A stretch of DNA of 64,000 nucleotides, from positions 124,001-188,000 of the forward strand of contig JYFJ02000032.1 in NCBI GenBank assembly GCA_000934665.2. Reading direction: 5' to 3'. This stretch comes from Catajapyx aquilonaris. Its lineage: Eukaryota. Made by a program: the position numbers and the translations under genes. This document shows, in pieces, positions 4,542 through 59,830 of the stretch. The notes beneath the pieces are model-generated. The model was given only the letters and a program-made list of their open reading frames with translations, searched no databases and was not told the DNA's origin. How positions within the stretch are numbered: the stretch's first letter is position 1; every line of letters begins with the position of its first letter.

Positions 4542-4578
4542 TACTAACATGCTCCATATTTTCTCCTTGCAGGTAAGA
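4542..4578 (+). other. Candidate recursive splice site (ratchet point): branch point, polypyrimidine tract, AG|GTAAGA
   Basis: TACTAAC at 4542-4548 (branch A 4547, 25 nt before the junction), then atgctccatattttctccttgcAG (AG 4571-4572) followed directly by GTAAGA (4573-4578); no AG between 4525 and 4570. Confidence 0.7.
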
Positions 4579-4643
4579 GCCAATCCGTCACCACAACTAC
4601 CTTTTGTATCCCAGTCTCACGCAGTGTGACACCGCGTCAGAAA
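4573..4643 (+). other. Candidate 71-nt recursive-site (cryptic) exon
   Basis: Starts after the strong acceptor at 4572 and ends at a consensus donor GAAA|GTAAGT (GT 4644-4645). Open in only one frame (xKSQSVTTTTFCIPVSRSVTPRQK); length not a multiple of 3. Confidence 0.55.
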
Positions 4644-4770
4644 GTAAGTGCGTTAAAACGGCATAATCTTCCTCTGAAGAAGCAATTTTCGCAGCGAAAA
4701 TGTTCTCAAGACTTTCCTCATCCCTCGAGATGATTTCGAAGTCTCGCATCAGGCTTCTCAGCGTCATTAC

Positions 4771-4800
4771 CCTCCTCCTCCTCCTCCTCCTCCTCCTCCT
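4771..4800. repeat. (CCT)10 microsatellite
   Basis: Ten perfect CCT units read directly. Confidence 0.95.
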
Positions 4801-7800: not shown

Positions 7801-10800
7801 AAGAGCTTTCCTGGCGCTGTCGTTGCAAGATTGAAGACCGGAGAAATTTTAGGGGACGTCAATAGCATAAACCCGACGGTAGAGGACTGAAGAATTGCGA
7901 GCACATTCTCGCACATTATTAGGATTAATTGCGGCGTGTCTCGGAGGCGAAATGCGAGGGGTCAGACGGTCGACACCCGGACGTGTGAGTGCGTGTGTTG
8001 GGTTGGGGGGACACCAGAGCAGGAAAAATCTTAATGTGGAAAAAACGGGGGAATGCCCCCAGAGTGACATTTTATGACGGGGATAAAAATTTATTATTTA
8101 TTGGAGGTGTCGTAAAGGAGACGGGGCCTGTGCACGGGGCCAGAGTGATGGAAGTGGACACGCGAGGAGAAGAACCCGTGCTTCCAGACTCATCTAATCG
8201 ATGTGTGTGTAGGTATATAGGTGGTGCTGAGAATTCGACCAGACGTATATAACAAAGGACATCTTTTATTGCGCTGTTTTGCTGCGGTCAGCCCTTCTTT
8301 AGCGTCCAATGAATGGGGCGGACATTAAATATAGGGGCTGCTCAAAAGGTGAGGAGCCATTCACAAAAGGCGGACGTAGCCAAATGGCTGTAAGTCACAA
8401 GTTGAGCTGCTGTACACCTGTGCCACAGCCATTTCGATATAAATGAAAGTCGGTTGACATACGCACGCTATAGAAGTTGGCAATAATATTGAGGTACGTT
8501 ATTGGCATTGCAGCCTCTCTACTACTTAAACTTAATGATGCGGGTGGGACAAACTTCAAGAAATTGTCATTGGGAGTATCGGGTACCACATATGTGCCAA
8601 GTCCATTCATTGCAGTCCTCTTGCTTTGTGCAATGCCTTTTTTTATTGTGCGTTGAGGGCATGAGGTGTGGATATTATTTTGTTCCCGCCCAAGCCAAGC
8701 AATAAAGTGGCATAAAAATTCCGTCAAAGCACCCCCACAATGGAAGCCGGCTCTCAGTTTACCCCCTCTGATCGTATTACTTTGTGTGTGCGGTCACTTG
8801 CGAGCCAACGCCCATGAGGAACATTTGGCACTACATTTTATAGCCTCCTTGTGCTATGCAGAAAAGCATGGGGACATAATGACCCGCGAAAATCTGTGAA
8901 AAATACTATTTTTTTGTTGGGTGTGTTTTGAGGTGATTTCCATAGTCCGTGGACTCCCCTTGTGGGCCGAATGCACCTGTGTCATGCGTGGCTAATTTTG
9001 CGGGCAGGATGACGGACAGGAGGCGTGGTAGCGTCCTCTGAGCTAGAGATGTGACCCCCATCTGAAAGGGGCATCGCTGTTTTGCTAAAAACCGACTGAG
9101 GATTTTTTTTTTCCAACCCTTTAAAGTTGGCCCCGACAAGTCTTTGTCTGCTGGACCAAGATTTTAGTACGGTCCTGATTTTGAACTGGTCCAATACTGA
9201 GCTGGCCGGAAATTAATTTTACGCTGCTTCTGGCCACCTGCATTCTTAAAATAGAAAAGAAAATCATTTTGAGGTACAGCGACAGCATTTTTTTTTACGG
9301 ATGATGGATGATGTTCGTGAGTCACGCAAGTTGTAAGAGAATGATCCCAAAAGGTAGTCCCTCTTGGCGCTCTCATCACTGGACAGACACTGCTTGCAGC
9401 AGGGGAGCTTCATATTGGTCTCGTTGCTCAATGTCGCCAAAACTTGTTTGGGATTTCCAATGGCGGAAACTTTGTGGGAAGTCGAGCCTTTTGTTCTGGT
9501 TGTTCCCTCCGCGAAGCTTTCGGGATATAATTCCTAACTCAACCTCAGAATTGCATATAGTGTGTGCATCTGGAGCTCATCAAAATGAGCAAATCCGAAA
9601 ACCAACCTTCCCCCCCCCCTCACCCCATTCTGACGTGAGAGCTGGGGTTTGCAAAGGCTTCGAGCGTCATTATACTGGTTTCTGTTAATGATGTCGAGTC
9701 AAGCAGTGAACATGTATATGCATAAGGCTTCAACGTTGCGGGTTTGTATGTGTGAAGAGACCGGAATATCCGTCTTGGTTAGTTATGAAAGTGTAACGAA
9801 TGTATAGGCGAAAAGTTTCTATGACCACTAACTAAGTCACTTTCCAGAAAAAGCTGACTTCATATTAATTTGCTGATGATTGCATAGTGACAGGATACAT
9901 TTGTTTAAATTTTTTTTCTTCAGAAAAATGGAGAGGTGTTTACCAAATGTGTGGCAATAGGGCGGAGGGTGTGGATTTGCTCGCAATTTGTCATTCTTGC
10001 ACTTGGTCTGCAGTAGGAAGCGGCGAATTCCCCTTAATGAGCGACGGATTAGTAGAGGTAAGAGCCACTTTGCTGGATGGAATGGAAAGCATTAATCGAA
10101 TGGCGGATACTGGGGTCGTAGGAGGAGCAGCTTCCCCTTTTGGAAAGGAAGAGGAGGAGGAGGAGGAGAGAAGCTCACGTCCTCTAGTCTCCCCGTTTTC
10201 CTTCCTCCAACAAACCTTTCTCCTAGTCTGCTTCATTAATTAGCAACGTCTGAGAGGGCTGCGACAGAAATGTGCTCAAATCGAATTAGGCTCTAGAGTT
10301 TAGCCAAGTAAGGGAATTAAGTAGTTTAAAGTTCATTATTTAAAACCCAATAGTGGGTAAAATTGTCTAACTTTGTTTTCTGCTACACTCTTTTTCGCTC
10401 TCTCTCTCTCTGTGCTGCACTAATATTAGCTAGTACTAAAGGCGCAGTGAACTTTGAGGAAATCGTGCGGTGGGCTTACCGGGGCTTACTACACGCGACA
10501 GAAGGAAAGGGGCATGGCCAAATTAAATTTCGCTGCCAGGTGGCTCTGAGGCGAACCGAAACTTCCGGACCTCTGGCACGACGACGACGTTCGCAGCAAT
10601 TAAGGACTTACCACCAATCAGGGCTGAGATATTTCTTATCACATATACGTCGTGAACTGTTGAGTTTTCGACGTGTCTCCATACCTGTATGACATGACAC
10701 GATGCAAATTATTTCCCTGCAGAGCTGCAGCCTCTGAGGCAAGGGATTACAGATTGGTGGAAAAAGAGAGCTGTTGAGATGTGGAGGGAGGGATGATGTA

Positions 10801-13800: not shown

Positions 13801-14260
13801 CGGAAAGCGCATGGCCAGGCTGAAGTACGGCTGGGTAAATCCAGGCTGACACTAATCCTCTTTCTGCCCGATGGCTGCGAAGAGGAAGCCAAAAAAGGTT
13901 TATTGTTGGGGGGGGAGGCCCGAATTGGTAAGAAGGGAACTAATTTATTGTAGTTGGGCTTGCTGCTCCTACCCCCCTCCACCACCACCACCCCCCACCT
14001 TTTGTTGGTCGGTTCTAAGAGGGGTGAGCTGTAAATCTGCGGGATTTCCGTGATTTACCTTTCATTCCGGAGGGTTTATGGCTTCAGAAGAGGGGGAGTG
14101 ATGGCCAATGTGGCAATCGGCAGCACGCGAATTCAGGTGTTAATGTTATCGCTGCTGCAGGCTCATTGTTAGGGCATAAACGCAAGACTTGCATAAGACG
14201 ATGCCACCACCCGCACCGTTTCCTTTGCTATATGGTAGATAGTGAGGGCTAGTTCAATCA

Positions 14261-14400
14261 GACTTTTTAACTGTCGGTTAATTGGTTGATTAGTCTAAAC
14301 TGGCTTTTAGTTAATCGGCTGATTAGCTTAAACTATCCGGTTAGTTAATTGGTTGATGGCTTAAACTGGTATGTTAGTTCGTAATCAGCCAATTAAAGTC
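14261..14400. repeat. Degenerate 33-34 bp tandem repeat (3 copies) with inverted-repeat ends; possibly MITE-derived
   Basis: Units GTTAATYGGYTGATTAGCTTAAACT...TTA start at 14277, 14310, 14344; 14382-14396 (TAATCAGCCAATTAA) is the reverse complement of the unit start; GACTTT (14261) and AAAGTC (14395-14400) form terminal inverted hexamers. Confidence 0.75.
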
Positions 14401-20400: not shown

Positions 20401-23400
20401 CATTGATGGGGCCGTCACCCCAGCAAAATTTCGCTGCAACCAAAAATTATATTAGTTGCTATAGGTGTGGCAACATCGCACTAATCTGAGGGTGAATTTT
20501 TGCCACACCGTTGGACCGGCTGAATGGAGAAGTTCATCTAGAGTCCGGTGGCAAGAGCAAGTGGAAATAATTCCAAGAATGCAGGGGCAGGCTTGATGGG
20601 CAGGAACACCAAAGGCCATCAGCAATCAGCGCACGTGGGTTGCCGGCCAACCCACCGCGCCAATGAACAGCCCCACAACAGCATATAAAACTTGGAACGA
20701 ATAATTGAGATTCCGAAATATAAAGACACACACAAAAAAAAAATCTCACCCAGCTCTTATTCCTTAGGGTGCAGTTGAGCACATCTTCCAAGAGGAAAAT
20801 GGGGGAGCCTTTGGACCATTACTAGCGTCGTAAAGCCGAGCCCCGGATTATTGTTTGACCAAGAGTTCCCCCACTCCGGTCATTTTGAATTTAGGACCGA
20901 TTCACGTCCTATCCAGACCCTGTTCGGGATTTGATAAAACACACGATGGGACCAAAGCCGGAGCAAGCTTATAATAAAGGACCGCCATCACTAGGGGGGG
21001 ATTATCTATGCACCCCTGTCTTCCAAGTCGGATGTCATGGCGCCTCGTAAATTTAGTAATCAATAGAAATTATTCGGCTCCGGACCACGGGGGGTGATGA
21101 GCTGGACCCCCAACTTTTTTTTTCGTGGATCCCAAATTTATTTCGGGTAAATGCGTCCAGGAAAACACCGTAATTAAAATGTTGGATGAAAATTGACGCT
21201 ATATCATTATGTAGCGCGCGACCACTCTATCATTACACCAAACAGTATGATGTAATCACTCTGCACACTATTCGGTCAACAAAGGCCCGTCTCTTGTGTC
21301 AGGTAATTACAGGTCCAGTATAGCATGCGCGTCACTTGTAATCACATGTTCCGACTTGGAAACGTGACAGCCGGCTTGGAGACGGGACACCAGAAATTTG
21401 GGACCGGAAGACCCCTGTTTGATGTGGGTACCACCAAGAATGCGTCTCTGAGAAAACTTTTGAGGGGGGGGGGGGACCTATCCCAAGGGCAGATTTTTGT
21501 GGAACAGTGCAACAAGAGAAGTGGGCGCCTTTTGTCGCATAGGCTTCGTCGGGTTCGTGTGTCCGCATCTCCGGGTCTCATTGCACGCTCGGCGCCCAAC
21601 ACACGTTTCCCACATTAGCTTAATAGGCGCGACACTTGGGGACTCGTTGCAAACAAGTCGCCAACCGCGCCAAACGCGTCCGTCTCCGCTTGACATTTTT
21701 CATAACCGCCTTGTCTGCAGCTGGCATTTATATTCCTCTTTGAGAAGACTGCCTCGCTGTGGCTTTGCCCTGTGTACAGTACCCGTAACAATCCGGCAAA
21801 GGTCCGGACACATGATGTTCCTTTTTTCACATAGCATTAATGTAAGTAGGCAGAAGATAGACATGCGATATTCCTTTTTGCATTGTTCCTGTCTGTCCGA
21901 CTGTCCTTCTGTAATTGCGAAACTTGTTCGAGTAAGAGCGAGACTGTAGGCCTCTAATGTATGGTCGGAATGAACAAGGCTACTTTCAAGTTAGAGCCTA
22001 ATTACTCTTAGCCTGAGCTCTCAGAAGAAAGCGACGTTGAAATAATTGCTCTCTGCTATACCTGGCAGGATGATTGGCTGATTTGAATAACCAACAGTGC
22101 AAACATATTTGAATAAGCAGCTCGGAAATTGCTATTATTAAATGCATTACAGCTCATTTTAGTAACACATTGTGTACACACGTGTATTGATGAAAAACAT
22201 GGACTATAGACGTACTACTCTTCCAAACTCTGCATTTACTAAATAGAGGCGTAGCATCCAAGAGAGCGAGAACCTCCTGAACCTGTGCCACGACTCGGCT
22301 TCACCCCCAGTTAATTTTGGGGACTGATTATCCGTTACCCGCGAGATATATTATTTTAGGGAAAGCCATTTCTGGCGGCACACCTGCCGGGTTGTTTGCC
22401 ACGCCCATCTCCGGTAGGTAAATCTGGTGCATAATCGATGGCGGCGTCCTCATTAGTCGGCCTGATATTTCGGCCCAAAGTGATGACGATGTCGGTTTTG
22501 TTGCAGCAAGCAGCAGCTCCGGCCCTGCTGCTCTGAAAGTACAGGGTGGTACATTCACCCGAAGCCATGACACGAATATTTTGCGGAAAATTATGCATGT
22601 TAAAAAAAATATTTAATGGTGATGTCCTGATATTTCTGTCTATACATGTGTCGACTTGGGCTTCACCCTGTACAAGGAGAGCCCCCGTCTCCAATTAGAA
22701 ATATCTCTTGTCTGTGATCTAACAAGAAGCTGGAGGGGCGTTGCTGCTTCCTCCAGGGAACTTGCGTTTGGAGCTGATTGATGGCTAGTTTGCGTCGTGT
22801 CTCCAGACGGGTGGAGCCATACACCTGTAACCGCGCGTCTGGTTGTTAAAAAAGAAATGCTTAGCAGCCCCTGCTCCAATGAGGAAGCTGCGTCAGCTGA
22901 CACCGCCGATTGCGACAGGGTCCTAACGAAGGCTCTTAGGCGGCTGTAATGAGGAGGAAGTAAGCCGGTTGGGCCTCCATTGGTTCACCCAGCCTATATA
23001 TAAGACGGGAGGCCGTTTCCTCGGGCCAGCAAGGGCCGCAGCTGCGATTGCGGGGATTACCCGGCGTGGGAGAAGAGCCCAGCCGGATGCGCACCCGTGC
23101 AACTCTTTTTCGCAGGCATTGGCATAAACTAGCCAAAGCCACTTTAGGCCTGACAAAGGTGTCGTAATGCCCGGGAAAGGCGGTTTTGGTGGGTGTACGA
23201 TCGATGCCTACATCTACTAGGTTAACAGGAGCATGGGATGGAGAAAGAAAAAAGCGGTGGTTTGCCTACAGTCTACACACCCCGTTTATCGCATCAACCG
23301 AGATATGAGCGCGTGTAATCAATTATTCACACGCATGAACGAATACGAGGCGTCTCTGGAGGAGGGAAGTTGAGGCTGCGTATCATGATACGCCGCATCT

Positions 23401-23874: not shown

Positions 23875-23944
23875 ACGTGCTGCTGATGGCACTGCCGCTC
23901 TGAGACCCCGGCCATTGGAGAGCACTACTGGATTCAACGAACCG
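23875..23944 (+). other. Candidate 70-nt internal exon (non-coding/UTR or frame-shifting)
   Basis: Acceptor cacactctgtctctctttgttgcAG (AG 23873-23874), about 65 nt AG-free upstream with a CGTCAC branch-like motif; donor CCG|GTAAGT at 23945. Confidence 0.5.
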
Positions 23945-29346: not shown

Positions 29347-32300
29347 AAGGGCTATAGGTTAATAATATATTGTTGATGCTTCCGGAATGATTGTACGCTC
29401 AGAATTTTAGAGGAAAATTGAATTAGACATGATGGCATGTTGTGGTTGTGGTCCGAAGTGGGTCCGGAAAGGTTTAGAGTAAATAAAACGAAAACCGACT
29501 TGTAAAATGTTGATGCGCCTCTCCTATTAAAAAATAACATTTGCCTGTAGTGCACCTGCTGGGACCATGTAAATCTGACCAAACTCATGTTCTGTCTGTA
29601 TACATGTAGAAATGTCCCTCAGATTATCTTCGAACGTAGGCGTACCTCTTCTCTTGCATGTTGTATCCTTTGGAGTGAAGGAGTCGTCCAATATGAAAAT
29701 AACTTCGGGCATATGTGATTGTCAGGTCTTATTCGTCTAGTGTCTAGTATTTCGTATATGTGCACTCATACGCCTGGAAAATTGTCATGCATAGACAAAA
29801 TCTGCAATCGCATAAAGAGGCCATATTTGCATTAGAATATCCGGAAGGAGTGCACATATTGCATTTCCCTCCCGCTCTATTTTATTTTTTTCCCCCCCAT
29901 GACATTACGGATTCAGAGAAATCTCTATTTATATTGGGGGCCAGCAGTGTCGAGAATGATAAAGTGAGTATATAGCCGAGAGGCTGGGTCTGTGCTGCTG
30001 AACCTAGATGTATCTTTGGTAGAAACAAGAGTCGCATCTGCCGTTGGAAACCTTTGTGGCTTCTGGCCAAATTCACTTGTTGCCCCGAGCGACCATTTTG
30101 GTCGGAACAACTCTTGTGGAGCTTGACGGTGTTTGCCTAGCAACTCCCGTGATTTCTGCATAAGTGAAATGAAAAGCGTATAGTTTGGCCAACTGCCATT
30201 TGGGGAACGCCCGCCTCAAACTGCAAAGGCGACCTTGCCGCAACAACAATGCCGCCCATCATCAAACTTCCATGCGGACTATTGTTGAACTTGCCGAATA
30301 CTATGGTTCCGGGTTCAATCGCAAATGTCAAAAGCACTGTCTATTAATATATAGATATCCCACTGCGGTCGTTTCTCTTTCATTTCCTGGTCATTTCCAG
30401 CACGCGACTTTGCCAACTGTTATCCCCCTTTGCAAAACCAATCGCTATAAAGTTCTGTTCCTTTATTTTTTCCTTTCCTCACCAAAAAAAGAGAAGCGAG
30501 CCGCGCACCTTGGAAGATAATGAGGTTATGAAGGAGTTTGAGGGTGCAAGTCCAAAACTTCCACTTGCTCAAAACTTTACTTAACACCTTTAAGCTTGCG
30601 GGGGCTTGGCGCCTTCAGGAAAGTACAAGTTGAGGCTCTGCGGGATCTCCGCCAGGCCCAACCCCTATCTCCAGTTTTCATGGGGCCAAGATTAGAGTCC
30701 TAAGACTCGGCGGCGTTAATAAAAGGCACGGGGAACGCAGCCTCTGGGCTCTCTATATGCGAGAAGAGGTATAAGGAATTGGAGCAAAGGCAAATAGCAG
30801 AGGACATGTCATTCGTTTCAAGAGGAATGGGGAAAATATGCTGGGCGACCTCGTGGGGGTCGGAATCTGCCTGTGGTTTAGGGGAATCGATCGAGCAGCC
30901 ATGGTATAGGTGCTGGGGGGTGTACGATTCACTCGTTGTCTATTTTAGGTGAGCGCCCAAAATCCCACACATGCACTCGACTCTTTGACCCGGGAATGAA
31001 CTGCGCCCTGTGTTGCGGCAAATTCGCGCTTGCCCACCGGCCCCATCCCAGGTCTTGTTGACAATTTATGGCACCCCTGTTCATATTTTTGGCGAGTCTG
31101 ATGGTCGGGGGGCGCCGCCTGTGTGCGTAGTGTGTTTTGGACAGAAATGTGCGGGTGTACTATAAAATACCACTTGAATAACGAGGGTTGAGTGCTCCTG
31201 CGGCATATGCTTCACCGCTGAGGAAGTGAACAGCAAGGGTCGTCTAACATACAGGACCATGTGGTATGGCGCAAAGAACCACCTCAGTAGTGCTCTTTAA
31301 GTGATGATCACTTAACATACTCCCTCTGTGCAAAGAACGATAAGTGGGGTGTTGACAGAGGCGACCATTTTGTCTATAAATAACAGCAATATAACAGATC
31401 GTGATTACAAGAATGATCCCCGCCCAACACTGTCTTTTGGCCCGCAAAAATCTATAATCTTCAGGGACAAATAAAATAAATCGCGCCAAGCCATAACCAT
31501 ATTTCTCGGCAGTATCCGATAGGCCCTCTAAATGTTTGATAACAGCCCCGTGCTCCCATCCCATCATGAAGCAGATGCATTCTTTATGGGGGCGATGCGG
31601 CCTGGAAAACATTGGATGGTCGGTAAGCAATGGCGAAGCGCGGCATAAAAATTGCATCGCCAGCCGTTTTCAACACTGCCAAGAGACATCAGCACTTGTC
31701 CTTTCCTTCTTTTCCATTGCGAAACAGTCTGAGAGACCTCCAGATATTGGAGAGGGCAAGGGAGGGGTCGAAGGCGGCAAAGTCGCAGCCAATCTATCAA
31801 AGTGGTGCGCCTCGGAAAAAGAAGGAAAAGTGCAGCCAGGATTTCTTTTTGTGTGTGTGTACAAGAGGTATTGGGGAGACCCGGCCCTCTAGGCATAGGT
31901 AGAAAGAGAGAGCTGGTTGGCTGTTGGAGTATAGGGAGGAAAAAGCCTCTCCAACGCCATCTGTACCCTGGTGCTACTCTGGGCTTAGAGTTGGAGGCGG
32001 CCAGACCGGCTTGCTCAGTCAGAGGTGGTCGGGGCCACGGGATGGGTCTCGGGTGTTTGGCCTTTGTGTTGCGGGCTCAGTACCGCTTGGACATTCTTCG
32101 GATTCGAACAACAGGTAGGATACATATATGTGAACAGTTCATTTACTTGTCAGTGCGGAATTATTATTCTGGGAGAGCCGGCACATTGAGGGAGCCGGCT
32201 TCACACACGGCCCGGGAACATATAATTTGCAGACATATCGGGCGGGAAATGAGCCTTGGCAGTGTAACGAACCGTATCGTTTGTGTGGTATTGGTACACG

Positions 32301-35300: not shown

Positions 35301-38300
35301 AAGGAGGGGGAATGGTAGCAAGCCAGTTCCACCGGAGTTTCAGGCTCGTTTCGCAATGGCCAGCCCTTCAACCCAATGTTGCGGTTCTGCTCGTCTGCCA
35401 CCATAGTACCTGAAACCTGACGTCTTTATTGAAATGGGGGCGGGATGCGTGTACGTTTCGTGTCAGGTAAATGCAGGTCTTTTGGTGGAGGGAGAAACGG
35501 GGCACGAGGCTTCTGGATTTTTACATATGTTTTGCTCAGAATGGCGCTTCGTATATTGGGCGTAATGGAGAGACCTGAATAAGTCCTCAGAGTGTGCAAG
35601 AGTGTGCGCAAGAATTTGTCACACTCTTTGCCGACACAGCACGTTATATGGAGGCCCCGGCGTTGATTGCCGGTATTCTGAAAGAATGTCTAGGGTGCTC
35701 GAAAGGCGGCCTTTGTGTTCGGAGCAGTAATCCCATTGGACACAATCGACGGATAAGCATAATCCGGCCGGTTCCACGTATTCCCCCGGAGTGACAAACG
35801 GTGCATTATACCCGAATATCATGGCTGCCAAGCACTAGCCCTGACTTTTTCCCCCCTCCTGTCCCTCCGCCTCTTTCTCTTTTCTTTTGAAAATCCCAAA
35901 CTGGAAGACCTTCGTCTTGGTCAGGCATCCCTCCTTCCCAAACTTGCTTTCAGCCTTCATTTACTTCCCATTCAAGATCCAAGACTACCGTATCGCACGC
36001 TGGCTATTATCGACTTCACTGATTGACGTTTGGGGATATACGTGGGGTTCGCTTTATATGATGGGCACGACTTTTCTCTCCCTACATGCATTCTTGTGTG
36101 CACATGTGACAGGTGGTGGTTGCAGCCAAGTACAGGATGTGGCGTGTGTCCTTTAGTGGCCGTTGCTTCCGGTGTGATGCCATAAGTTGGACGCGGAGGA
36201 GCACTGGCTCTTGAACCTGGAGAGAAAAAAAAGAGTGCATTTCCTAGGATTCGGGCGTTAGTGATCGATGAGCAGATCGCCTGAAAGTATTGCGTGGGTA
36301 ATAGTTGGTAGGTGTGTACTTTTTCGCATGCCACAGGGAGGGTTTACTTCGGCGGAGGATTTGTCATGATTGAGCATTGGCCTAAATGACTCTGTTAGCA
36401 GCGGGGGATATACAATAGGAAGTCAATAACTGGAGCTCTCTCCGGTTCGGGGTTTTCGCCCTCGCTAAAGATCGCTCACTTTCTGGATACAAAAAAAGAG
36501 AAGTAAAATATTCGTGGGTGGCAGCCGAAACTTTCTGCACGTGAGTTGATTTTTCTTTCTGGGTAAACATGCCCTATACGCAACTATGTTTACATAGGTT
36601 ACTGTAATCGCCCATTTATTCCATTCAAGTTCAGATTGCGCGATAGTTGGGGTCGACATCGATTCGTCTGCCTAATACAGACATATGGCCAGTCTTGCAT
36701 GCGGAGATAATTTCTGGAAGTGCCTGTTTTTCATCCCACTGTAAAGTTTATGCGATTATACGGTTGAGAGATGCAATAATCTGAAATTAAATTAAGCGGA
36801 ATGTCTTCTACCTACAGAAACGATTTGTTTTGCTTTTCAATTTTGGGGTGACTGCTGGTGGTTGTCGAAGCGAGGGGTTTGAAGGATTTTATCAATCTGT
36901 TGAGACAAGCGCCTGAGTGGGACACTGCTGGGTTTGGTACAACATGGAACCCCCAAAAGCAGGAATTCCTGGAGGGGGGCACCCTTCTCCCTTCTTCTTT
37001 TTCGAAGGAAAAGCAGCCCCGCCCCTGAAGGTTTCAGCAGACGTCCTCCTCCTCCCTGGGATGATGGCAAAGGAGCAAAAGAGACGCCCCTTGGGGTCCG
37101 AGCCTAGTCTGCAAACGAGGCCTCTTTTGTGACCATCCCCGCAAGCAAAGGGAGGGAAAGGAAAACTCCGCAGGGGCATAATCCTCCGGCCCTTTTTTCT
37201 TCGGGGCGACTTTTCACACCAGCATGGGTCTTGTCAGAGGAGCAAAGGAGTGTGACGCCCCAAGCCCCGAAACTGGCTCTATCTACTCTATTCATATCCG
37301 ATTGCTGCGAACCCACAGGGGCTGCCTCTATTCTCTCCCTCTCTCTGGTGTGTGTCTCACCTGTCCTCACCTTTCAGGTCGCAAAACATGTGTACGCGCA
37401 GTTGGGAAGCGCTTCTCATAAAGCCCGCTTTTGTCCCAGATCGATCGTAATTTTCGATCGATTTGCACAAAAAAAAACAGGTTGTTGCGTTGTGACTGCA
37501 CGTGTCAGGCACACTTTGGGGGGGGGGGGNGGGGCTCTGAGTGCAGTTGTTTTCGGGGGCGGCAGCATCCCCCTATAGTAGCCTGCAGGTTGAAACCCTT
37601 CATGGTCACTGGCGAGGGACTCGGGGAACACAAACCACAAAAATGTGTCCTCTGTGAAATGCATTCTAGCAGGACCGTAACACTCGCTTGCTGCAAGAGC
37701 CGCCGTGTAAAAGATTGCACAGAATGTCACGGGACAAGGTGAACGAACTGCTTTGATTTAATTTTAGAGCGGGGGGTATGCCTATGCTGCACTGTAATAC
37801 AGCCAGGTCATGGAGGTGCACATTTTAATTTGCGCATTAATGATGTTCATCGATTTTTAAAAAAGAACATACCTGACCCTGCCAAGAGGCGTGTTTATCC
37901 ACCGGAGCTGTCTACCACCTTAGTTGACTTTGTTCTTCAGACGAAGTGTTTCAGACCTTTGGCGAGAAGGAGGCGAGAGTTAAGAAAACAGTCTGTTCAT
38001 GATGCTGCTAAAGTGGAAGCGAAAGTTTGAGTGCAGGACCAATCCGACCCCTTCCCCAACTGTACATGTCAATAAAAGTTTCAGACAAATATCTAGCTGT
38101 ACTTGCCTGTACTAGTTGCCAACAATCATGTGAGAGAAGAAAAAAAGTGATATGCTTTCAGAGTAGGGGCTGGGACGACGGGTATATACGGGATGCAGCT
38201 GGGGTAACGCCCAAAATAATGTGCTCAATAAGTGGGCTTGATTGATATTACCCCTCTTATTAAACCTCACAAAATTCTGCTCCGGAGCATTGACGCCCTA

Positions 38301-41646: not shown

Positions 41647-41648
<2 letters not shown>

Positions 41649-44600
41649 GGCGCAACTACACCCGGTGAGATGGTCCGGAATAAACGAGGCCCGAGTGTTT
41701 CCGGCGGATCGGACCTAATGCGTGCTCGTTACTCGAATAATCGGATGGGAATGCACGCAGCGGAGTCTCTGAGTGTATTGGCGTGTGGATGCGGGCCTAA
41801 TGGAGCCCATTCGAGTGAAAAGCAACCGGAGGAAGGGAGAGATTTTCTCCAGGCATATCTCTAAGGATGTTCCTGGATGCTGCTGGAAGGGATTAGAAGG
41901 ATCGAATCGCTAATTGATAGCTTTGGTTGGGCGACTAGACGACTCTACCAAACTAATTAGCTTAAGGAAGCATCTGCTTATGCCTCCAAAAATCTGGCGT
42001 CTGGAAAGGGCAGGACATGGCACTTGTAGAGTGTTGGGGGGAAATCTCTTAATCCCACTCACTTTGCCAACTTTTGGTGCAACGCACTTGGTGTGATCTG
42101 AGCCCAAAAGTTGTGGGGGCGACATGTGGGAACTTGTGAAATTTTATGAGGAGGAAACTGTGGGGCTGTATACAAAGGGTCATTAGCAAAGTTGGCTTAT
42201 TTTCGGGGGCGCCGAAAAAAAAATCGGTGACGTGTGCCAAATGAGCTCGATTTTTTTTTGGCCGGCTAAGTTCGGGGGGGAATCCATCATCGGCCGGTTA
42301 GTAGTTGTTGCACATGATCGGCTCCAGTTCCGCATTATTTAGCCTCCAGCGCCCATTATGTTGTTCAAAAAAATATGCGGAGGACCTTGGGGGATGCTCG
42401 CAGGTTGTATCTAGGCAATGGTCAAGGTCGTATTACATACTGTATACGGTGCACCGAGAGTAGAAAACAATATTTGAAGGCCTCTGGTGGTTTACGCCTG
42501 CCATGCATGCCTCCTGGTGAATCATAAAGCAGACTAGGCTACATACCTGTCAGGATAATTTCGAGGCCAGATGGCATGGTTGTATGACTCCAGAACTTTA
42601 AACATAATTATCCTCGCATTTAGACTTCCCGTTAAACAAAAGAGCTGCTTGGGTGGCCCTGAAATGTCAGGATAAATATAGCTCTGAACCCCGGCTCTTA
42701 ATTTTTTAACCGTTGTTACCATTGCTACCGTTACTGTCAGCATCTTCTAGAATGTAGCATGTATTGTATATAAATAAGATTCCCTGACTTTTGTCAATTC
42801 GCAGGTGACAGCCACCCGGTTTCACATGAAAATAATGGGCTGTGAAAAACCGGGCCTGTACACATCCATGTTAGGCACACCACGTGGGTACACGGGATTT
42901 CAGAAAACCAAGAAATACAAACCTATCGCTTCTAAAAATACATGCACGTGTCAGGAACCCGAAGACGTAAAAATATACGATCAGAAATCTTCCCGATATG
43001 GATCTTATGTCTCAACGCCAGCCTCGCCCCATCGACGAAAACAAGCCCAATTTTTTGCGTCACAACTCAAATGTAATTATTGTTTCAGCCTCCTTTCTGT
43101 TGATAAGAGGCCCGCACTACTTGTGAATAAATGCTCCCAAACTGTTTATGCAAATGGGCGATTTTTCCAGTTGGTCAGCTTCACTTTTTTTTTGTTGTAC
43201 ACAGCTGCAACGGTAGTTAGTGGAATCATCCGAGTCAGTCGGCTAAGAGTAGAATATCTGCAGGAATACAGCCCGAGGGACTCCGTGCCATATGGAGGTC
43301 ACGGAGCTCTTATCTTGGGGCAGGCGAACACCTCTCGTGTCCTTCTTTTTCCTTGACCCCTGGGGTCAAACCACCCATCCTCTCCATACGCGCGCATATT
43401 TGTAACACAGGGCCGGAGCTTCTCCCACGACCCTCAGCCACGACCTAGACTCGTGCGATTCGCATCATCGGTACCCAATCGGTCATTTCCGGGTTTGCTT
43501 TTTTGGAGGACTCCAGAAAAATCCCAAACCAAACATTCCCTTCTGAGGATTTCCCCCGGATTCTGCGGGATTCCCCAGAGTAGCCAGGAAAAGGAATCCA
43601 TTAGAAGGAAAGCGCAAATTTGCATTACATTCCACGTTTTTTTAGTGGGTGTGTGCGCGCGGTTTCCCTCGAGACCTTCCCTTTTTCTCAGAGCTTGCAA
43701 TATTTACCGGAGTACACTAGGTTTTAGCGTGTGTGCCGCCTTTTTTTCTCTTCCTTTTTAAACTCTGAACCCTCCCGTTCTGTGGGTGAGCGGCGTAAAT
43801 CACGACCGTTAAAACGGCGAGTCAGAACCAATTCGACTCTGTCGGGTACACGATGTGGGAAATTGCTGGCCCCCAGATCCCCCCCTTCGAAAAGTCTTAG
43901 GGGGTTTTTGGTGGAGAAGAGATGCTCACCTCAACCTTCACGTGGGGTCGCCAGCAAGTCACTGAACGGATTGAAAAGAAGCCTGGCAGAAAACGTAATT
44001 AGCGTGCTCGACTCTTACACACGGCCTCCAAAATGGGGGCTCCAAGGTTGATACACCGATTTTTTTATTTATTTTTTGCAAGTTCAAAATGACGTTGTGG
44101 AAATTTACAATTTGTAAAAATCATGTTATGAAACACCCTGTAGAGTGGTAAAAATTTGTCCGTTTCATAACCAAGGCGGCAGTAGCAATTTGTCAGTCTT
44201 AAGGAGTAAGGTGTGCAATTACGTCGAGGCCCGTGATTGAACGCCCTGTTTTTGCAAACTTTTTTTTTTGGAGCGGTTGGTGGGGGAGTGACGGGGGCCT
44301 AGTTTTGCGAGGAATTAAGGTAAGCGCAAGTGAACCTAAAGAAGCGACGTTTTTCCACGAAGGTAATCTGAGGAAGAAATAGGAAATGAAGCACTTCGAC
44401 ACTATTGATTGCTTTTTTTGCAGCGATGGGCCAAATAGTCTATTCGCCTAGGGTATTGCAGGTGTCATGTTCGACAGGTCGGATTTGCCGTCTGTGGGTT
44501 TACTACAAGTGGAGGACCCCCCTTTTTTTCTTATTTTTTGACGGCAGGCAAATAGCCTCCTTAGCCCAGGGGTTGGAGCAAAAGTGAAGCTTTGTAGGGA

Positions 44601-46524
44601 TCGGCTGGATCGATGCGGATTGCTTGTCGTTCGACAAGACTATATGAAAGCGCAGCAGCATCAGAGAACCTTGTGGACTCTCCCTTAATCATCATAAAAT
44701 TGTAGGGGATGCCATGAATCCAGGCGTCGCTCCTGCTTCTTGGCACACACAAGATAATCTTCAGATCATTTGCATTTCCTTTTTCTAACCATTATCCGGT
44801 CTCTCTTTTTTGCACCGGCAAAGGATGATCAATCTTGGTATTGGGACTTGTGTAATTAAAAACCAATCATGGCCTATCGTGCTTCTTGAGTTCAGATTAC
44901 AGGTTCTCGTGTGATGGCTTAGAATGGACCCTTAAAACACATCGATTCGCACATACTCTCCTTTGGATATATATTATACCCCTCCTGCTCATTAAAAAAA
45001 TAACGTGACGTGTCACTCATTAGGAGCCGAAATGACTTTTGAACGGGGTTTGTGCTTCCGCCTGTCGATTACTATGAAGCGGCGGCATGTTCTGAGGACA
45101 AAAGCGGTAGCGTGCTGTCATGCCTGTGGGTCAGAATACAATTATCTGTATCATTCTCATTTTTCACCTATTTTTCCTCCCACACCCCCCACAAACCCCC
45201 TCTGGCCATTGTTCATCTTTCTTTTGTGCCGGGGTGACATGCAGCAAAAATTTGTGACTGATGGTGGTTCATGAAACGTTATGTATGCCCTGTCGTTGCT
45301 TGCAGGTTGCACACGTTGCCACCCGAAACTCACCTGAATGAGACTCAGGGAAAAAAAACACCCAATTAATTACGCTGGCTGTTCATTGAATTCCAGCCAA
45401 CTGAATGCTGTGCCACAACCTTTTTGAACAGTTTTGGCGAATCACCTTGTGCAATATCGGGCCACATCACAGGGGTCAAAACACACTTTTTCAATGTTTT
45501 TCTGGCAGATTCGCCTAAACAAGCAGCAGGAAGTTGTCAATGTCACTAGACATTAACTTGGTAACACCCTGTAACCGTGCCAAGTAGTCACAAGTCAAAC
45601 AAGGGAAAGGTTGGCATGGCTCAGGAGAGATAAGACGGGCACGTGGTATGCGACGACTGTTTTAACCGACGTTGAAAGGGCCTGTAAGTCCACAGGGACA
45701 AAGCCTGGGAGGAGATGATGACCAAAGTTTAATAGGCAGGAATAGAGCGCTTAGCGTCATTTTACTGCTCGCCATTCAATTAGGCGTCCGAAACTGCGAG
45801 AGGCATTAGCCACCCTTAAATCCTCAAAGCGATTTCTTGCCGAAAACCGTACATTCTATATATTATATAGGTAGTCTGTGCGACAGTGTCCGGTCGATTC
45901 CTTGTGGCCGAATTTTAGTGATAAAACATCCATTCATTAGTGTGGATAGGGGGAAGGGAGGGGCACATGCCTAAGAGAGAATCCCGCCCATATAATCCCA
46001 ACATGAAACTGGGAGACGCATAATGAGACAAAGTGAAATCCCCCTTCCCGAACGGAGGCCTGTTTTCATTAGGGATATTCCTTGGGTAATAAATGAGTGA
46101 CAAGCGCGCAATTTGCCTGAAATCTTCTCCGGCCTCTAGGGGATGATTAGGTCCATGCAGAGTCAAATTACACGTCAATCTTCAGACGGAGGAGGGCGGA
46201 TTTCAAGAGAGATTCGGACCCACTTTGAGGCTGCTGCGTATACTGGTGACCCAAGCGGACGTTCGGAGAGGCTTTTTTTTAGATATATATCTGAGGGGGA
46301 AGAGGAAATAGCTGGGATTCCTGGCCAGACTTTATTGCAGCAGGTAGAGGCAAGAGATCCCAAGATGGTTCCTTTGGGATGCGGCTCCCGAATGTGCAAT
46401 CATGGCAGGAATGCAGTGGCCGGTATTGAATCATCTGCCAATGGAACTAATGAATTCTGCTTCCGGGAATAAACAGCATAGGTTCAATACAGCAGCAGCA
46501 GGTTTCGTTCAGACTGAGTGCTGC

Positions 46525-46548
46525 ACACACATACACACACACACACAT
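46525..46548. repeat. Interrupted (CA)n microsatellite
   Basis: cacacacatacacacacacacaca read directly. Confidence 0.85.
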
Positions 46549-52500: not shown

Positions 52501-53020
52501 CCGGGCGTGTAATTCGATGGGAACGGCGCCGGCAGATTAGGCGTCTCTCCCTTCCGGAGACCTCGGAATCCCCTTAGCCCTAATCCCATCTCGTTGCACG
52601 ACCCCCCCGAGGCCCCTCTTCTGCCTGCACCTTGCACGCCCACCACCTGCGTTATACACCACTCCTACCTTACAAAAATAAAAAAAAAGAGGAAAAGAGC
52701 GCACCGCCAATAGAATACCGAAAACACGCGTGATGTACATATCTCGCACGAAAAAAAAACGCCTCCTTATTTTGGTTTTACAAACACATCAGGCCGGTGC
52801 ACTTCATTTACACTGGAGATTTTTTTTTAACTCGATGCTAGTCATGCTGGAAAAAAAGATTTTGGGTGGTCCGAACGTGCTGGATGCTGAGCCAAGTTGG
52901 AACCATTACAGACGGAGCATATATATAACGTGGATCCACACACGCTTCGGGATTCACTTCCCATAAAACAGGGTCACCTGTCCGGCCTGCTGGTGTGGAC
53001 TACCGACTATTTAAAAAAAA

Positions 53021-53038
53021 CACACACACACACACACA
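53021..53038. repeat. (CA)9 microsatellite after an A8 run
   Basis: Read directly. Confidence 0.9.
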
Positions 53039-53363
53039 GGTGCGACCCACCGCTGGGAAACGCGTTTTATTCTCCCATGCCATGCCATCTAACTAGAACG
53101 CAAATGAATATTTGAACAATCTATATATTTCACTTTTTCGGGTGGTCCGGAGTAAAAGCCTGGGTGCGATCACCTATATACTTTGCGAGGAAAGATTTGG
53201 GCGGACCAAGCTGGGAGAGAATTGGTCATCGTTGGCGAGCGAGATGGACCACTGAGGTTGCCATGGCACCGTCTCTCTTCTTTTTCTCTTCTCCTTTGCA
53301 GTTCAATCTGGAAGCAGGTGCGGCTCTGAATTTTCCATGGCGCTTCTCGGTGCTTGCTTTCAG

Positions 53364-53382
53364 TCTCTCTCTCTCTCTCTCT
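53364..53382. repeat. (TC)n microsatellite, about 9 units
   Basis: Read directly. Confidence 0.85.
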
Positions 53383-55866
53383 GGGTTTCTTTTGCGGCTC
53401 CCAAACTACAGAAGCAAATCAACAGGTTCTCTCCTGTGAGTCGAGTCGCAGGTGAGAGAAGCTGGGAAGTCATTAAGCTTAGGTCACAGCGGCAAGGCAA
53501 TGAAGTTGTTTTTTCCCCCGACAGGTTGACGCATGGCAGCACGAATAATCCGCTAAAAATATTCATTACAAGTTCGGAAGATAATCATGATTATATACGC
53601 GAGAATAGTGTGGCATACCGCATTGCAGAATAATTTTCATTGCTCTGCTGACTGCATTGTTTGTAATGTGACTTAACGGTTGCTTTGCAGAGGATTATTA
53701 TTTCTACATGTTTAAAGACCTATTCAGTATTCACACGTCTGGCATCGTGTACTGTATAAGCCTATACAGTGCTCGAGGCCAGGGGCTGGGCAGATACTGT
53801 ACACTTTGAATCGCACTCCTTTGTAGCATACCGCGTTTCATTACCGCTCCAGCTTGGGCTTTGCATATTCCTTTAATCGGATAGGTTGATTTTTCATCAG
53901 ATTTTTTTGGGTGGGGGGGGGGATGGAATTGATTCTATACCTGTAACGATCATGCATTGATTACCCATTCTCATTAGAATTTTTCCGATCAAGTCCGCAT
54001 ATAGCTAGAGTTTGACATTTTTCCCCCCCTCTAGCTTTCCTGGAAATCGGAATGCGACTTTGTGCCGCACTAGGCTATCGGCAGACCTACATTTCAAGCC
54101 CTTTAAAGCTCGGGAATTAATATTACATGACTGGCATACTGACGCTCTCAAGCCTACATAAACAATGCCGGCGAAACTCCCGTCATTTAGAGGGAATCAA
54201 GAGCTGAGTTCTCTAGCCTATAATCAACTCTCATCCTGTATTTTGTGGGTGTACCAAACAAATCCCTCCTTGATTCCGGCCCCAATTAAAAAATCGTTTG
54301 ACGCGTCACTCATTGAAATTGCAATAATGTACTGTCATGCCACTGCAAACGGCCTTGCGACGATCTCCGTGTTTGCAACGCTGAGCAATTTCTACCCCTC
54401 TCCAACTTCCATTACCTGAGTGCTGCTTGTGTATGTTGACACGGCCTCCTCCGACTCGGAGAGCCTTAATGGTTCACCGGTGCGAAGATGGTTATAGAGT
54501 CTCCGTGCTGCCTTGGAGAGAGCGGTCACTTTGAGTACCAGCATCCTGTTTGATGATCTACTCTGTTTACTTCCTCCTGCAAGACCTTCCATGTATACTC
54601 ATTATCGGCTCGCGATTGGCATCCGGATTTCAAGGAGCTGCGTTTGCTTTAAGAAAAAAAGAAGAAGGCGTTAAATTCTTAGGGCAAGGAGGAGGCCAGG
54701 GCCGGAGAAAAGTGGCGTGGCAGTAATCTGGGCACATAATGGCCGAGATAAAGCGTCAATAGTCATTCCGAGAGGATGCTGCGAAGAAAAGCGCCAGTTT
54801 GCCAAATCGCCCTCCGCTTCCTTGGGCTCTGCCATTTCCCCTTCCACCTTTTTTTGAGGGGGCTGCATCTCTCTCCAAACGGTAGCTGCTTGCTGCCTAG
54901 GGCCTACCCTCGTTTTTTTTGGAGGAGAAGAAGAAGAGGAGGAAGAGGACGCCAAAGAGATGCGTCTCATTTCCTCATCATCGCTGCATCTCTTTCTGGA
55001 GATTGGATTGTGTGAAGAAACGGAGGGAGATGGAAGTGGAGGCAACGTCATGTGAGCCCCTGTTGAATAGACCACTTATGGAAGAGGGGGGGAAAAGTAA
55101 AGCTATTTTTTTTGAGGTTATCTCCCTAGAGGTTATAAACGCCGCGCCGTCTGCATTTTGCGAGGAATTGTACGCCAGTACCCACATTTTAGCTCTCATG
55201 TTTGTAATAATTAACGGACAGCAAATCCTTGGATTCTGTGATCACCTTCCGCGTATAGGTGAGTCATAGCCGGCAGGGGATGGGGTAAGCCCATAGCCAA
55301 CCCCCACAATCGATATCTCCGAGTCAATAGAGATCCGGCGCTCAAGAAAAAAAAACGGGGAGTGAAAAAAGGAAGAGTGTAATTCGATTTTTTCAATTTT
55401 TCCTTTTCCCTCCGTTTTTTTGTGCTTCTCCCTTTTGGACCATTCCTTCTTCTTCTTATCCAAGTGTGGCCGTCAGCGACGTGGGAGGGGGTTATGACTG
55501 GAGCTGCAAATGTGAGAGGGCGCGAATGAGGGAGCAGTATCGGGTTTGCACCCAGTGCTGATGGGAAAGATCCATTTTGGCATAAGGGTCCCGGATAAGT
55601 CTTGGCGGGGTGAAGAAAACTGGGATGGGGGGGAGAAGAAGAAGAAAAAAAAAAAGAAGACGCATATGCTGACACGGTTGCCCATATCTGGTGAAGGGGG
55701 GGGGGAGGTTTGGAAAAGGCAGTTTGGGTGTTAGGGTGGTGCAGATAAATTGGCCATGATGGATCAAGTGGCTGCTCGCATTTGGCATCGCCAGAAGTGT
55801 TGAGGAGGGAGGGTGGATTCATCATCTGGAATGTGGGCTTCATGAATAGATCATGTCTTCAGCAGG

Positions 55867-55952
55867 CCAAAGCGGTGATTTTTTGATTAAAAATTATTGC
55901 TGTTCAAAATAGCAGCGATTATCGCTATTGATGTGTTCAAAATAGCGGTAAT
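55867..55952. repeat. Short degenerate direct repeat (GTTCAAAATAGCRGYRAT twice plus one partial copy)
   Basis: GTTCAAAATAGCAGCGAT at 55902 and GTTCAAAATAGCGGTAAT at 55935 (33 nt apart); partial AAAGCGGTGAT at 55869. Confidence 0.65.
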
Positions 55953-57547
55953 TAATATCAGTTTTATTTTCCTGTGGATCGATCGAGCGTTGTCTATATC
56001 CTTGGCATTTTCACACGAGGTTTGGTGTGAGAAGTGTACGCAGTCGTCGGTTGCTATACCGGGCCGTGAGACACGCCGAGACTAACGAGTTTCCCGTGCG
56101 GATCCGTGTTACGGGAGTCTAATGGAGGCGATAGCGACCGGAATGCGAGCAGCTTGGAAGCGGTCAATGGCTTTTGCTGCTTCGGACCCTCCTAAATGGG
56201 TGGAGGACAGCGGAAAAGGGGGTCCTGTCCGTGGGACTGGACTACGAGACCATGACGATCGGATTCCCAAGATTCTGGAGAAGCGTAACCCCTTCTCTAT
56301 ACTATGCAAGCACGATCGAACCGCGGACTCGCCCATGGAGAGAACACACAAAAAAATTATGGATTCAGGGCAAAAAACGATACGCTCTTCAGCTGACAGA
56401 TCAACGCTAACTAACCACATCACCCACAACATGCCAGGCTCAAATTCGGCTCTCCAACAGCTCTTGTCTCTGCCTTGAATGCATTAGTTTCGTGCTCGCT
56501 TGATTCCGCGGCGTCCGGATCATGCTGGGCAGTTTCTTCCTTTATCCAGCCATGCCTTCCAAATGCGCAGGAAGCAAGCGTGACGCGGTGTCATTGGGAC
56601 CACGGAACCGGAGCGACTTCATGAAGACACCAACGGACTCTCTCCTCTATCTTTTTTTTTTTTTTGCCAATTTACCAGCAGGGGTGTGGGCCACTTTGTC
56701 ACCGTCACTGCCTCGACCATTTTTACTCCCGCCTCGACGACGGTTATTAGCTATTCTGGAGAGTCCAAAGGGGAATGGGAATTTTGTGGCCTTTAAAACA
56801 GTGCAGGTCACCCTCGGTGCTCTATTGTCCAATATTCCAAACACACATGTGCTAAAGTGTGCTGTCGACATTTTGAGAAAAAATTATTTGTAAATGTTGG
56901 TGGGTAGATGTAGCCTGAAGCAGTTGCGAGTATGTTAATGGGAATGGTACTGATGAGTAACATTGGTGTTAAAATTATTTAATTCTCCGGGCTGCTAATA
57001 GCTCGGCTGCCCCTAGAGAACACACATCCATAACTAGTGTCGGATTAAATAAATAAATAAACAGTGACAATATCTGTACAATCAGAGAGCAAACAGAATT
57101 TCCTCACTCTCGTACAATCGTGTATTTTTTTAAATAAATATGACCACTCCTTGTATTGGAGACACAAGGTGTTTCATTATGCACGTGACAAAAGATTGCT
57201 TATCAATTTGTCCCCGGATTACCCCCTCCCCTTTCATTGAACCGCGCTTATTAAGCTATGGCTTAGGGACCGCACCTAACAAGTCGTCTCTAGGGAGTAT
57301 TGTACTACACACATTTCACTAATCATTAAACGATGGTGTCATCAGCGACATGCTGCAAATGTAATACAAATTTAATCAGCTTTAGCAACGCACCGTACAC
57401 GTGGCATTCATTATGTCGCAGTTTTAATGATCATGTAATGAATGGGCAGATAACGAGCTCGTTACAACTAGTTATTGTTTACCCGATGCGGCGGTGGGAA
57501 ACCGAAATCACTAATTGTTTTCCCCCCCTCCTCTTGGTCCATTTCAG

Positions 57548-57586
57548 CTGCTGCTGACTCTGCTGGCAACAACAACAGTCTTGTTG
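57548..57586 (+). other. Candidate 39-nt frame-preserving microexon
   Basis: Branch CACTAAT 57509-57515; tract tgttttccccccctcctcttggtccatttcAG (AG 57546-57547); about 75 nt AG-free upstream; donor TTG|GTAAGT at 57587. Open in two frames: xAADSAGNNNSLV (phase 1) or LLLTLLATTTVLL (phase 0). Confidence 0.65.
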
Positions 57587-59830
57587 GTAAGTCCATCCTT
57601 CTTTTTGATCGTCATTAAAAATGGGTTGCAATGAAGTTCATTACATAATCCATGAATTTGATCGAAATTAACCTACGAATAGTAAGTATTGCAGTGTGTG
57701 AATTATGTTGGCAGTTCCTGCTGAGGTCCAGGGTCTGTGACCGTTTCTTTGTGGCCTTTTCGCGAATTCGCAATTTGAAAACAGTCCGGAAGAGAATGAA
57801 TAGTCCCGTGTCGCACCCTCTGACCGCACCTCTAAAACTTGTCAACACCTCTGGGGTGTTCCACTGGGGATTCCAAAGCGGGCCGAGCTGGGTCACAAAG
57901 GGTGTCGACGAGGGAAGGGCCCTGGGTTGACTCTAGGGGAAAGAGGAGAAATGGCTAGGGAAATCAATACAGGAACCGGAGGCAAACTCCACCGGCTTTT
58001 CTCTTTCACTAGGAAGCACATTCTCCTTCATTGAGCCTCCCCCTGTAGAATTCAATTTCCACTACCCTATATATCTGTTTTGGGTGTCTCTTCCTCCCTA
58101 CTCAGAACGACCGTCTGGCACTAGGAAATTGGGGGGGCTGATAGACCACTTTTTGAGCGGAGTGTCCAGCTCCCACAGTTGTCCCATAAATCCTGAGAGG
58201 TAGCTTTTAGGGTCCAGTAAGACCGAAAAAGAAAACCTAAGAGAGCCTCGTAAGAAGTGTACGATAACTATCTGGTCCTGTTAGTATATTTCCCCTCAGG
58301 CCCAATTATATGTTAAAGTCAAGTGTATGCAAAACCATGCATTGACTCATCTCTCTGATTTGCCAGCCTTAATTGTGACGGACACTGCCGCCAATTATTT
58401 AATACAAGCTCTCAAGTGGGTCTATTTAGGAGCGTCTTTTTGTGGGGGTCGATACCAAGGCTTCTTGAGAGAGCAGCAATGGCTGGTTTCGATCCACACA
58501 CGTGCTTTGGCGCATTCCTAAAACCAGGTCCCCCGAAAGTTGTTGGAACAAAAAAAAGGAGCAGTAGTAAGGAAACAAGGTTCGAGTTGGGAATAGGCTT
58601 GGGCTGGCAATTTGTGGCAGTCGGCAGTCAGCTCTTTTTGGAATACTCCCTGGCTTTTCTGCGGAAAAGCTCACTGGGAAGGACGTAGTCATATAGCACT
58701 GTGGGGGTAATTGGGACCCCCCCATAGGACCCCCAATAGGAAAAGTGGAGCGTGAGTGGAGCAAATTGCACCCGGTTTGCTGGCTGGAGTGTATGTCTCA
58801 TGAGAGCTAGTCGGGAAATTCACAACAATCCTGACCGGGCAACAGTTGGCGCTCAAACCCTCATTTCCTGGTTAGCAAGAATGCCCAACAAAACAGCAGA
58901 TGGGCATGAGCAACCGCCCACTCGATTCGTGACATCCTATTCCGGACCTAAACCTAGGCTACTATACTGCTACATAACATGCCTTCTTTCGCCTGTTGAC
59001 AGCTCGTTGCTTATTCGGTTCCGCATTAGCATAATTGCACCCACGAAACAAGATTTGGTTCATGACCTTTTTCGGGAAGAAGGGTTGTTGTCCTCCACTT
59101 TTTTTTTAAAAAAAACGGGCAAGATTCATATTTTGGCGGCGATAAAACGGAACCGTATCGATTGTATCGCCAGATGGTTTTGTTGTAGAGTGCAAAAATA
59201 ATCCGGTTGTTGGTAACGGAGGCGTTTCCCTTTCCCGGTGCTTGTTGGGGCCAAAGGGCGGCTGGCATCGGTGGGCAACACCTGCCCGGCACGAGTTTGC
59301 CCCCGCGCGACCCCCCTCATGTGTGCAGGCAGATGCGTTCATGTCGGATGGGAAAAATGGGCGTTTACATTTCTACCAAGAGTGAGCCAGAGAAACCCCT
59401 CTTTGCACTTCCCCCATGGCAGCAGCAGACCCACAAAACACTGCATGCTACACTTGTCAGGGGGATAACGGAAACTGGCTGCACCTAATAATTGGTGGTG
59501 CATGGGAACCGTCTCTTAGGAAACACCTAAACTACCGTGGCTAGCTGCAGCAGGTTGCCCATTTTTACACGGGGTTCTAATCCTCCCGTTTTTACGCGTA
59601 ATCGCCCTTAATTGCACACTAGAGATTTTTGCCATACTGCATAACCACTCACTTCCTCCTACCGATATTAAATTATCCGTCGATCACTAGTTTTTTTTGC
59701 TCCTGATGTGTGTATACAGCTCTGCCCAAAGTAGGTTGTTCACCCCAGCAACACATTGGAAGTTGCAAACTGTTGATTGTTCAGATAAACTAACGACAAC
59801 TCCATGCTAAGATTGTGCAATATTTAATTT

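Follow-up and report, generated by a model that had tools for sequence, protein, structure and literature searches.

The window analysed here, a 64,000-nucleotide (nt) stretch of DNA from Catajapyx aquilonaris (GenBank contig JYFJ02000032.1, positions 124,001 to 188,000 of the forward strand, numbered below from its first letter), carries on its plus strand a fused acceptor-donor site that is probably a ratchet point for recursive splicing, at the junction 4572/4573, together with small exon-like units that may belong to the same long-intron gene. Drosophila and mammals both provide well-documented cases of recursive splicing. An earlier note on this DNA had proposed that the region is a single giant plus-strand intron, removed in steps through a chain of small exons in the manner of Ultrabithorax (Ubx) of Drosophila. 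The features on which our own reading is built are the following:

4542..4548, plus strand: branch-point consensus TACTAAC, with the branch A at 4547 (-26 relative to the junction)
4553..4578, plus strand: putative ratchet point TTGCAG-GTAAGA with its pyrimidine tract (12/14), junction 4572/4573
4573..4643, plus strand: unit A, candidate cryptic recursive splicing exon (RS-exon), 71 nt (3n+2), one open frame, no ATG
4644..4649, plus strand: donor of the candidate RS-exon, AAA-GTAAGT, 5.9 bits
23875..23944, plus strand: unit B, ordinary exon candidate, TTGCAG ... CCG-GTAAGT, 70 nt (3n+1), one open frame
57548..57586, plus strand: unit C, symmetric microexon candidate, TTTCAG ... TTG-GTAAGT, 39 nt, open in two frames

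The letters of the three units were as described before: A is 71 nt long, begins with GTAAGA and ends at GTAAGT, and GTAAGT donors also follow the 70 nt of B and the 39 nt of C. Sites were scored with two filters, a splice position matrix built on approximate frequencies (scores in bits) and a literal rule derived from fly data, TTNYAG together with a pyrimidine count over 14 nt. The rule is based on 47 of 49 fly rows, counted by eye, in part 4 of 11 of the S1 Table of Pai et al. (PMC6110457); TT occupies positions -6/-5 in 196 of the 197 fly ratchet points of Duff et al. (10.1101/006163). Chance expectations came from Markov simulation, from circular shifts and from real acceptors paired with the real hexamer frequencies of the window, and the roughly 1289 windows in the genome were taken as the background from which this one had been selected.

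By the matrix, the fused site of unit A is the best of the 380 AGGT sites on the two strands (12.1 bits), and it has TT at -6/-5. Such a site is expected 0.009-0.04 times per strand when real acceptors are paired with real hexamer frequencies, and 0.046 times per window, both strands together, under the literal rule; the latter expectation falls to 0.0013 per window when a GTRAGT donor must follow 25-120 nt downstream, and to 0.00012 when a CTAAY branch site is required as well, which amounts to about 0.15 chance modules with a branch site across the ~1289 windows. The branch site, at -26, lies inside the range of -36 to -21 that holds most fly ratchet branch points (10.1101/006163), and the donor GTAAGA is found at seven fly sites in the Pai S1 Table (PMC6110457). 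A 9-nt likeness of the start of unit A to one fly site of that table was dismissed as chance. The AG-exclusion zones (48, 66 and 76 nt) lend weak support, because they are exceeded by 24%, 12% and 8% of the other strong acceptors, respectively. In flies, the RS-exons of ratchet points are short, usually out of frame and cryptic, and are closed by a downstream donor (PMC8605326). The 4573 site combines the fly characteristics of a strong fused AG-GT, the TT, the tract, the branch distance, a short out-of-frame exon and a downstream donor, and judged by these signals it is probably a real ratchet point.

Units B and C are of a different kind. Their first letters are ACG and CTG, respectively, and because neither starts with GT they cannot regenerate a donor and are no RS-exons. 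B and C can only be ordinary exons. The single giant intron of the earlier note is not supported, and neither is a chain of Ubx-like re-splicing exons: A alone has a donor at its start, yet its length is 3n+2; C, of length 3n, starts with CTG; and B has neither property. If B or C is constitutive, there must be at least two or three introns in the window. Unit A is open only when entered in phase 1, B only on entry in phase 2, and C on entry in phase 0 or 1. As noted before, splicing A to B runs into a stop (no frame of the A-B join is stop-free) and the 39-nt unit keeps the frame; the B-C join has one stop-free frame, but this carries no information, given that two of the three frames of C are open. 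Unit B contains an ATG-to-TGA mini open reading frame of five codons, and a branch-like CTAAT lies upstream of C at 57511-57515. The predicted folding of A, B and C was no better than that of shuffled sequences (z 0.03, -0.83 and -0.06). Near their 5' ends, B (23878-23886) and C (57549-57557) share the low-complexity 9-mer TGCTGCTGA on the plus strand, which we take to be possibly either chance or a splicing-factor site of the YGCY type.

The literal search for TTNYAG with at least 11 of 14 pyrimidines, paired with GTAAGT within 20-100 nt, returned exactly A, B and C on the plus strand (3 against 0.18 under a shift null, p 0.0004), and no case on the minus strand. The p value was 0.0066 and 0.02 at thresholds of at least 10 and at least 9 pyrimidines, 0.006-0.14 when the range was widened to 20-200 nt, and 0.03-0.30 with the looser donor GTRAG. 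By the matrix, four exon-like units score at least 15 on the plus strand and none on the minus strand, with 0.69 in Markov simulations (p 0.007); at a score of at least 12 the p value is 0.32. Circular-shift p values for minus-strand pairing never fell below 0.17. The thresholds used for the strand excess were picked after the data had been seen. The plus-strand excess of exon-like units is real but moderate. Of the fused AG-GT sites with a matrix score of at least 2, 7 lie on the plus and 10 on the minus strand.

Other exon-like units and further fused sites

Beyond these units, the scans returned further exon-like units and fused sites:

53302..53451, plus strand: exon-like unit, TTGCAG (14/14 pyrimidines) and CAG-GTGAGA, 150 nt, top score in the matrix scan
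9924..10057, plus strand: exon-like unit, TTCTTCAG ... GAG-GTAAGA, 134 nt, three ATGs, rank 4
28791-28707 and 43961-43930, minus strand: exon-like units of 13.3 and 14.3 bits, inside the simulation range
30929..30954, plus strand: possible second ratchet point, TTTTAG-GTGAGC, GT at 30949, 10/14 pyrimidines, borderline
21297..21308, plus strand: TGTCAG-GTAATT, rejected (acceptor 0.1 bits, TG at -6/-5, acceptor rank 619 of 7674)
42799..42810, plus strand: TCGCAG-GTGACA, rejected (TC at -6/-5, acceptor 3.6 and donor -1.7 bits, rank 193 of 7674)
55253..55264, plus strand: GTATAG-GTGAGT, rejected (acceptor 0.0 bits, GT at -6/-5, rank 653 of 7674)

The five top exon-like units of the matrix scan all face the plus strand (53302-53451, A, B, 9924-10057 and C), although C ties at 14.3 bits with a minus-strand unit. 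The orientation given in the earlier note for the best units is thus correct, but its selection of them had missed the first and the fourth, both on the plus strand. Within the unit at 53302-53451 lie a further acceptor at 53364 and a further donor, GTGAGT, at 53436. Its single open frame contains an ATG and, after it, a hydrophobic stretch that stems in part from a CT microsatellite; this frame continues into C without a stop. For this unit we found no homologue and no Pfam match. The unit at 9924-10057 lacks TT at -6/-5 and likewise had no Pfam match.

The earlier note had also placed four AG-GT fusions in line with unit A as relays of the giant intron. All four are present, with their GT at 21303, 30949, 42805 and 55259 (the positions given before were those of the last acceptor base), and one could picture five ratchet points arranged as a ladder, along with microexons re-spliced in the manner of Ubx. 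Unit A is a good ratchet point and 30949 a borderline one. The five sites are evenly spaced (coefficient of variation, CV, 0.20; p 0.013 against five random points, if they were unselected), with gaps of 9.6-16.7 kb that are inside the fly range (10.1101/006163), and three of the donors do occur in flies, GTAATT at 21, GTGAGC at 6 and GTGAGT at 51 sites in the Pai S1 Table, where GTGACA has one low-confidence site (PMC6110457). Moreover, TTNYAG-GT sites with at least 10 of 14 pyrimidines number four on the plus strand, against 1.39 expected, and none on the minus strand. However, three of the four additional sites lack the TT at -6/-5 found almost without exception in flies (10.1101/006163), and their acceptors rank only 189-653 among the 7674 AGs. 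As a set, the four are not above chance, and the minus-strand fused sites at 52668 (8.9 bits) and 45333 (6.6 bits) outscore every one of them. The spacing of 10-17 kb described before is true of the five chosen sites but can be reached by picking by hand: an equally even subset has a probability of 0.15-0.42 when four sites are taken from 7-10 random candidates, and the five top-scoring plus-strand fused sites are uneven (CV 0.67). With B and C not starting in GT, a five-point ladder is very improbable, and of the stepwise splicing once proposed only the site at 4573 is supported. To judge by their sequence, 21303, 42805 and 55259 look like chance sites.

The site at 30949 passes the literal rule, including TT at -6/-5, and 0.05 such sites are expected on the plus strand. 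No good donor follows it, the best GT within 25-120 nt scoring -4.9. That it serves as a second, weaker relay is a tentative suggestion that we hold to be rather doubtful. Two further TTNCAG-GT sites on the plus strand, at 37378 (11/14 pyrimidines) and 45306 (10/14), have the poor donors GTCGCA and GTTGCA and no good downstream donor.

Window setting and candidate host gene

The window is animal-like in composition, with 47% GC, microsatellites and 3 N. No protein-coding gene was found within its 64 kb. None of the 300 N-free, stop-free frames of at least 69 amino acids matched a Pfam domain, in a scan that left aside five N-holding frames of at least 70 amino acids and about 670 frames of 40-69 amino acids, and the window had no Rfam match. 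These blanks are as expected for an intron or an untranslated region (UTR). At E<=10, no protein matched the stop-free stretch surrounding B, C or 53302-53451, among 25, 14 and 10 candidates, respectively. Searching with the unit B stretch, phmmer returned five matches, which were rejected because they look like repeat proteins whose scores are sums over 3-6 matched stretches; one of them, P0003, has 10 of 14 residues in common with the query in a single stretch. No usable match came from the ESM Atlas, degenerate DNA patterns of units B and C had no match in metagenome contigs, and a literature search with the peptide motifs returned no paper. All these homology blanks are weak evidence, because the queries span only 13-49 exon residues and three of them are padded with intronic flank. 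There are no informative repeats in the window; a degenerate 33-nt tandem repeat lies at 14277-14379 (3.1 copies, 73% matches). The statement of the earlier note that the host gene cannot be named from this window was borne out, as every homology route proved blank or spurious.

The intron of Ubx has phase 1, and A and C are both open in that phase. This raises the question of whether the window belongs to a Hox-type intron between the hexapeptide and homeobox exons, with the symmetric unit C as a 13-codon phase-1 linker microexon, A as ratchet point and B as poison exon. Little weight attaches to the phase agreement, since two of the three frames of C are open. Alternative linker lengths are known for Ubx and abd-A of springtails (PMC3910676; 10.1101/2023.12.01.564554). 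However, in an alignment of 17 panarthropod Ubx sequences the linker inserts are fly-type, of 4-5 residues, or absent (PMC7616481), and none of those other than the fly type matches; four motifs taken from A-C had no match in the supplement holding these sequences, in which gaps or line breaks could hide one (PMC7616481). The frame of C matched no protein. A microexon of 3-30 nt with strong sites, the type of the short Ubx linkers, was not found in the window, which has three weak candidates. The Hox motifs [YF]PWM, WFQN and WF.NRR are absent from the six-frame translation of the window; RRRGR/RKRGR has two matches there, which were discounted for lack of a homeodomain context. We consider a Hox-type intron very unlikely. 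Equally far-fetched is the more elaborate proposal of a Hox linker intron of a non-dipteran arthropod with an independently built, Ubx-like control, in which A, with an unusually competitive donor, would act as a regulated switch that shifts the frame, 30949 as a second relay, B as a poison exon and C as an optional linker microexon of 13 codons.

Proposed splicing route and known systems

We favour, at somewhat better than even confidence, a plus-strand gene with long introns that has a single ratchet point (4572/4573) and two small exons of the ordinary type, to which a weak relay at 30949 may be added. The layout of these elements and its excess over chance are observed directly; transcription, the order of steps and the skipping of A are drawn by analogy from Drosophila. 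On this reading, held with the same modest confidence, the whole window would be internal to one gene whose introns are very long, and the promoter and the main coding exons of that gene would lie beyond it. The GTAAGT donor would first define the 71-nt unit A as an exon, and an upstream exon would be joined to the acceptor at 4572. The joining would recreate a GTAAGA donor at the junction, the use of which would drop the 71 nt, so that the intron would run on to the next exon. B and C would be ordinary small exons, constitutive or optional, of a 5' UTR or of a poorly conserved N-terminal region, and the window would thus hold several long introns rather than one; within the 29-34 kb that follow B, 30949 may serve as a second, weaker relay.

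Several observations weigh against this model. Over 32 settings of the matrix, the circular-shift p value for plus-strand pairing runs from <0.001 to 0.56, and it is never significant with donors of at least 6 bits. Strong acceptors taken alone have no significant strand bias (14 against 9, p 0.41, or 28 against 16, p 0.096, for example). Over the ~1289 windows, 1-2 modules without the branch site are expected by chance. Base composition is also ambiguous. A steady skew of G over C runs through the window (1-64000), with 24 of 32 two-kb blocks positive (p ~0.0001), and a weaker skew of T over A goes with it (p 0.016-0.03), which suggests one long asymmetric domain; the sense strand of fly introns is skewed to C over G and T over A (PMC5786239), so that the T>A skew on the plus strand agrees with the fly sense strand whereas the G>C skew runs opposite to it, and the direction of transcription cannot be fixed in this way. 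Together with the blank homologue, Pfam and Rfam searches, the shifting p values and the contrary GC skew would suit pseudo-exons, intergenic or within a minus-strand intron, with a plus-strand excess produced by the selection of windows and thresholds. Yet this would leave to chance both the module of unit A with its branch site, at the very low expectation given above, and the presence on one strand, but not on the other, of three units that combine TTNCAG and a strong tract with GTAAGT, and we regard it as improbable.

A last difficulty concerns the two donors of unit A. The downstream GTAAGT scores 5.9 bits and the GTAAGA ratchet donor, counting its intronic part alone, 3.4 bits, whereas in flies ratchet donors are generally stronger than those of RS-exons, with hth as an exception (PMC8605326). 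In Bx mutants of the fly, the RS-exon donor outcompetes the ratchet donor where the latter is the weaker of the two (PMC8605326), which would favour A being an expressed exon (UTR, long non-coding RNA or poison exon), often or always kept, in a multi-exon chain A-B-(53302)-C, non-coding or of a 5' UTR, that is re-spliced rarely or never; that A and B are not co-translatable would be irrelevant in a UTR. Nevertheless, because 3.4 bits covers the intronic part only, the contest depends on the upstream exon, and the ratchet donor would reach ~6.5 bits in the same matrix if that exon ended in consensus. An exon start in GTRAG is moreover rare (0.2% of the AGs of the window), and in flies more than 500 intronic ratchet points stand against fewer than 50 expressed RS-exons (PMC8605326). 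We therefore consider an expressed unit A unlikely, and retain the reading in which it is a cryptic RS-exon.

If the site at 4573 were proven, it would be a data point on the age of the recursive splicing mechanism, although a lone candidate site changes little and a genome-wide set would matter more. Among the matches listed in our literature search, the NPF1 intron of the locust was the only case of a recursive site in a non-dipteran arthropod (PMC8892266). Like the present candidate, it combines a non-dipteran arthropod, a long intron (230 kb) and a recursive site predicted from a motif, but it is backed by a U2AF65 pull-down (PMC8892266), whereas 4573 is a candidate by sequence.

The Drosophila ratchet points of kuz, Bx, luna and Ubx-RP (10.1101/006163; PMC6110457; PMC8605326) resemble unit A in their strong fused sites, the TT and the out-of-frame exon. 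Recursive sites are present in most fly introns above 40 kb (PMC6110457), with a mean ratchet segment of 17,953 bp (10.1101/006163), to which the 19.2 kb from A to the next exon-like unit, B, come close. Unit A is longer than the ~50 nt typical of Drosophila RS-exons, and its downstream donor equals or exceeds the ratchet donor in strength, unlike the general pattern in Drosophila. As to Ubx itself, the earlier note was right that its microexons start with GTAAGA: m1 and m2, of 51 nt each, have this donor at their start (PMC8605326; 10.1101/006163). Unit A shares with them the GTAAGA start, the open frame in phase 1 and the position of a small exon amid long introns. However, m1 and m2 preserve the frame and are donor-first, whereas A shifts the frame, neither B nor C has GT at its start, and no Hox motif was found in the window.

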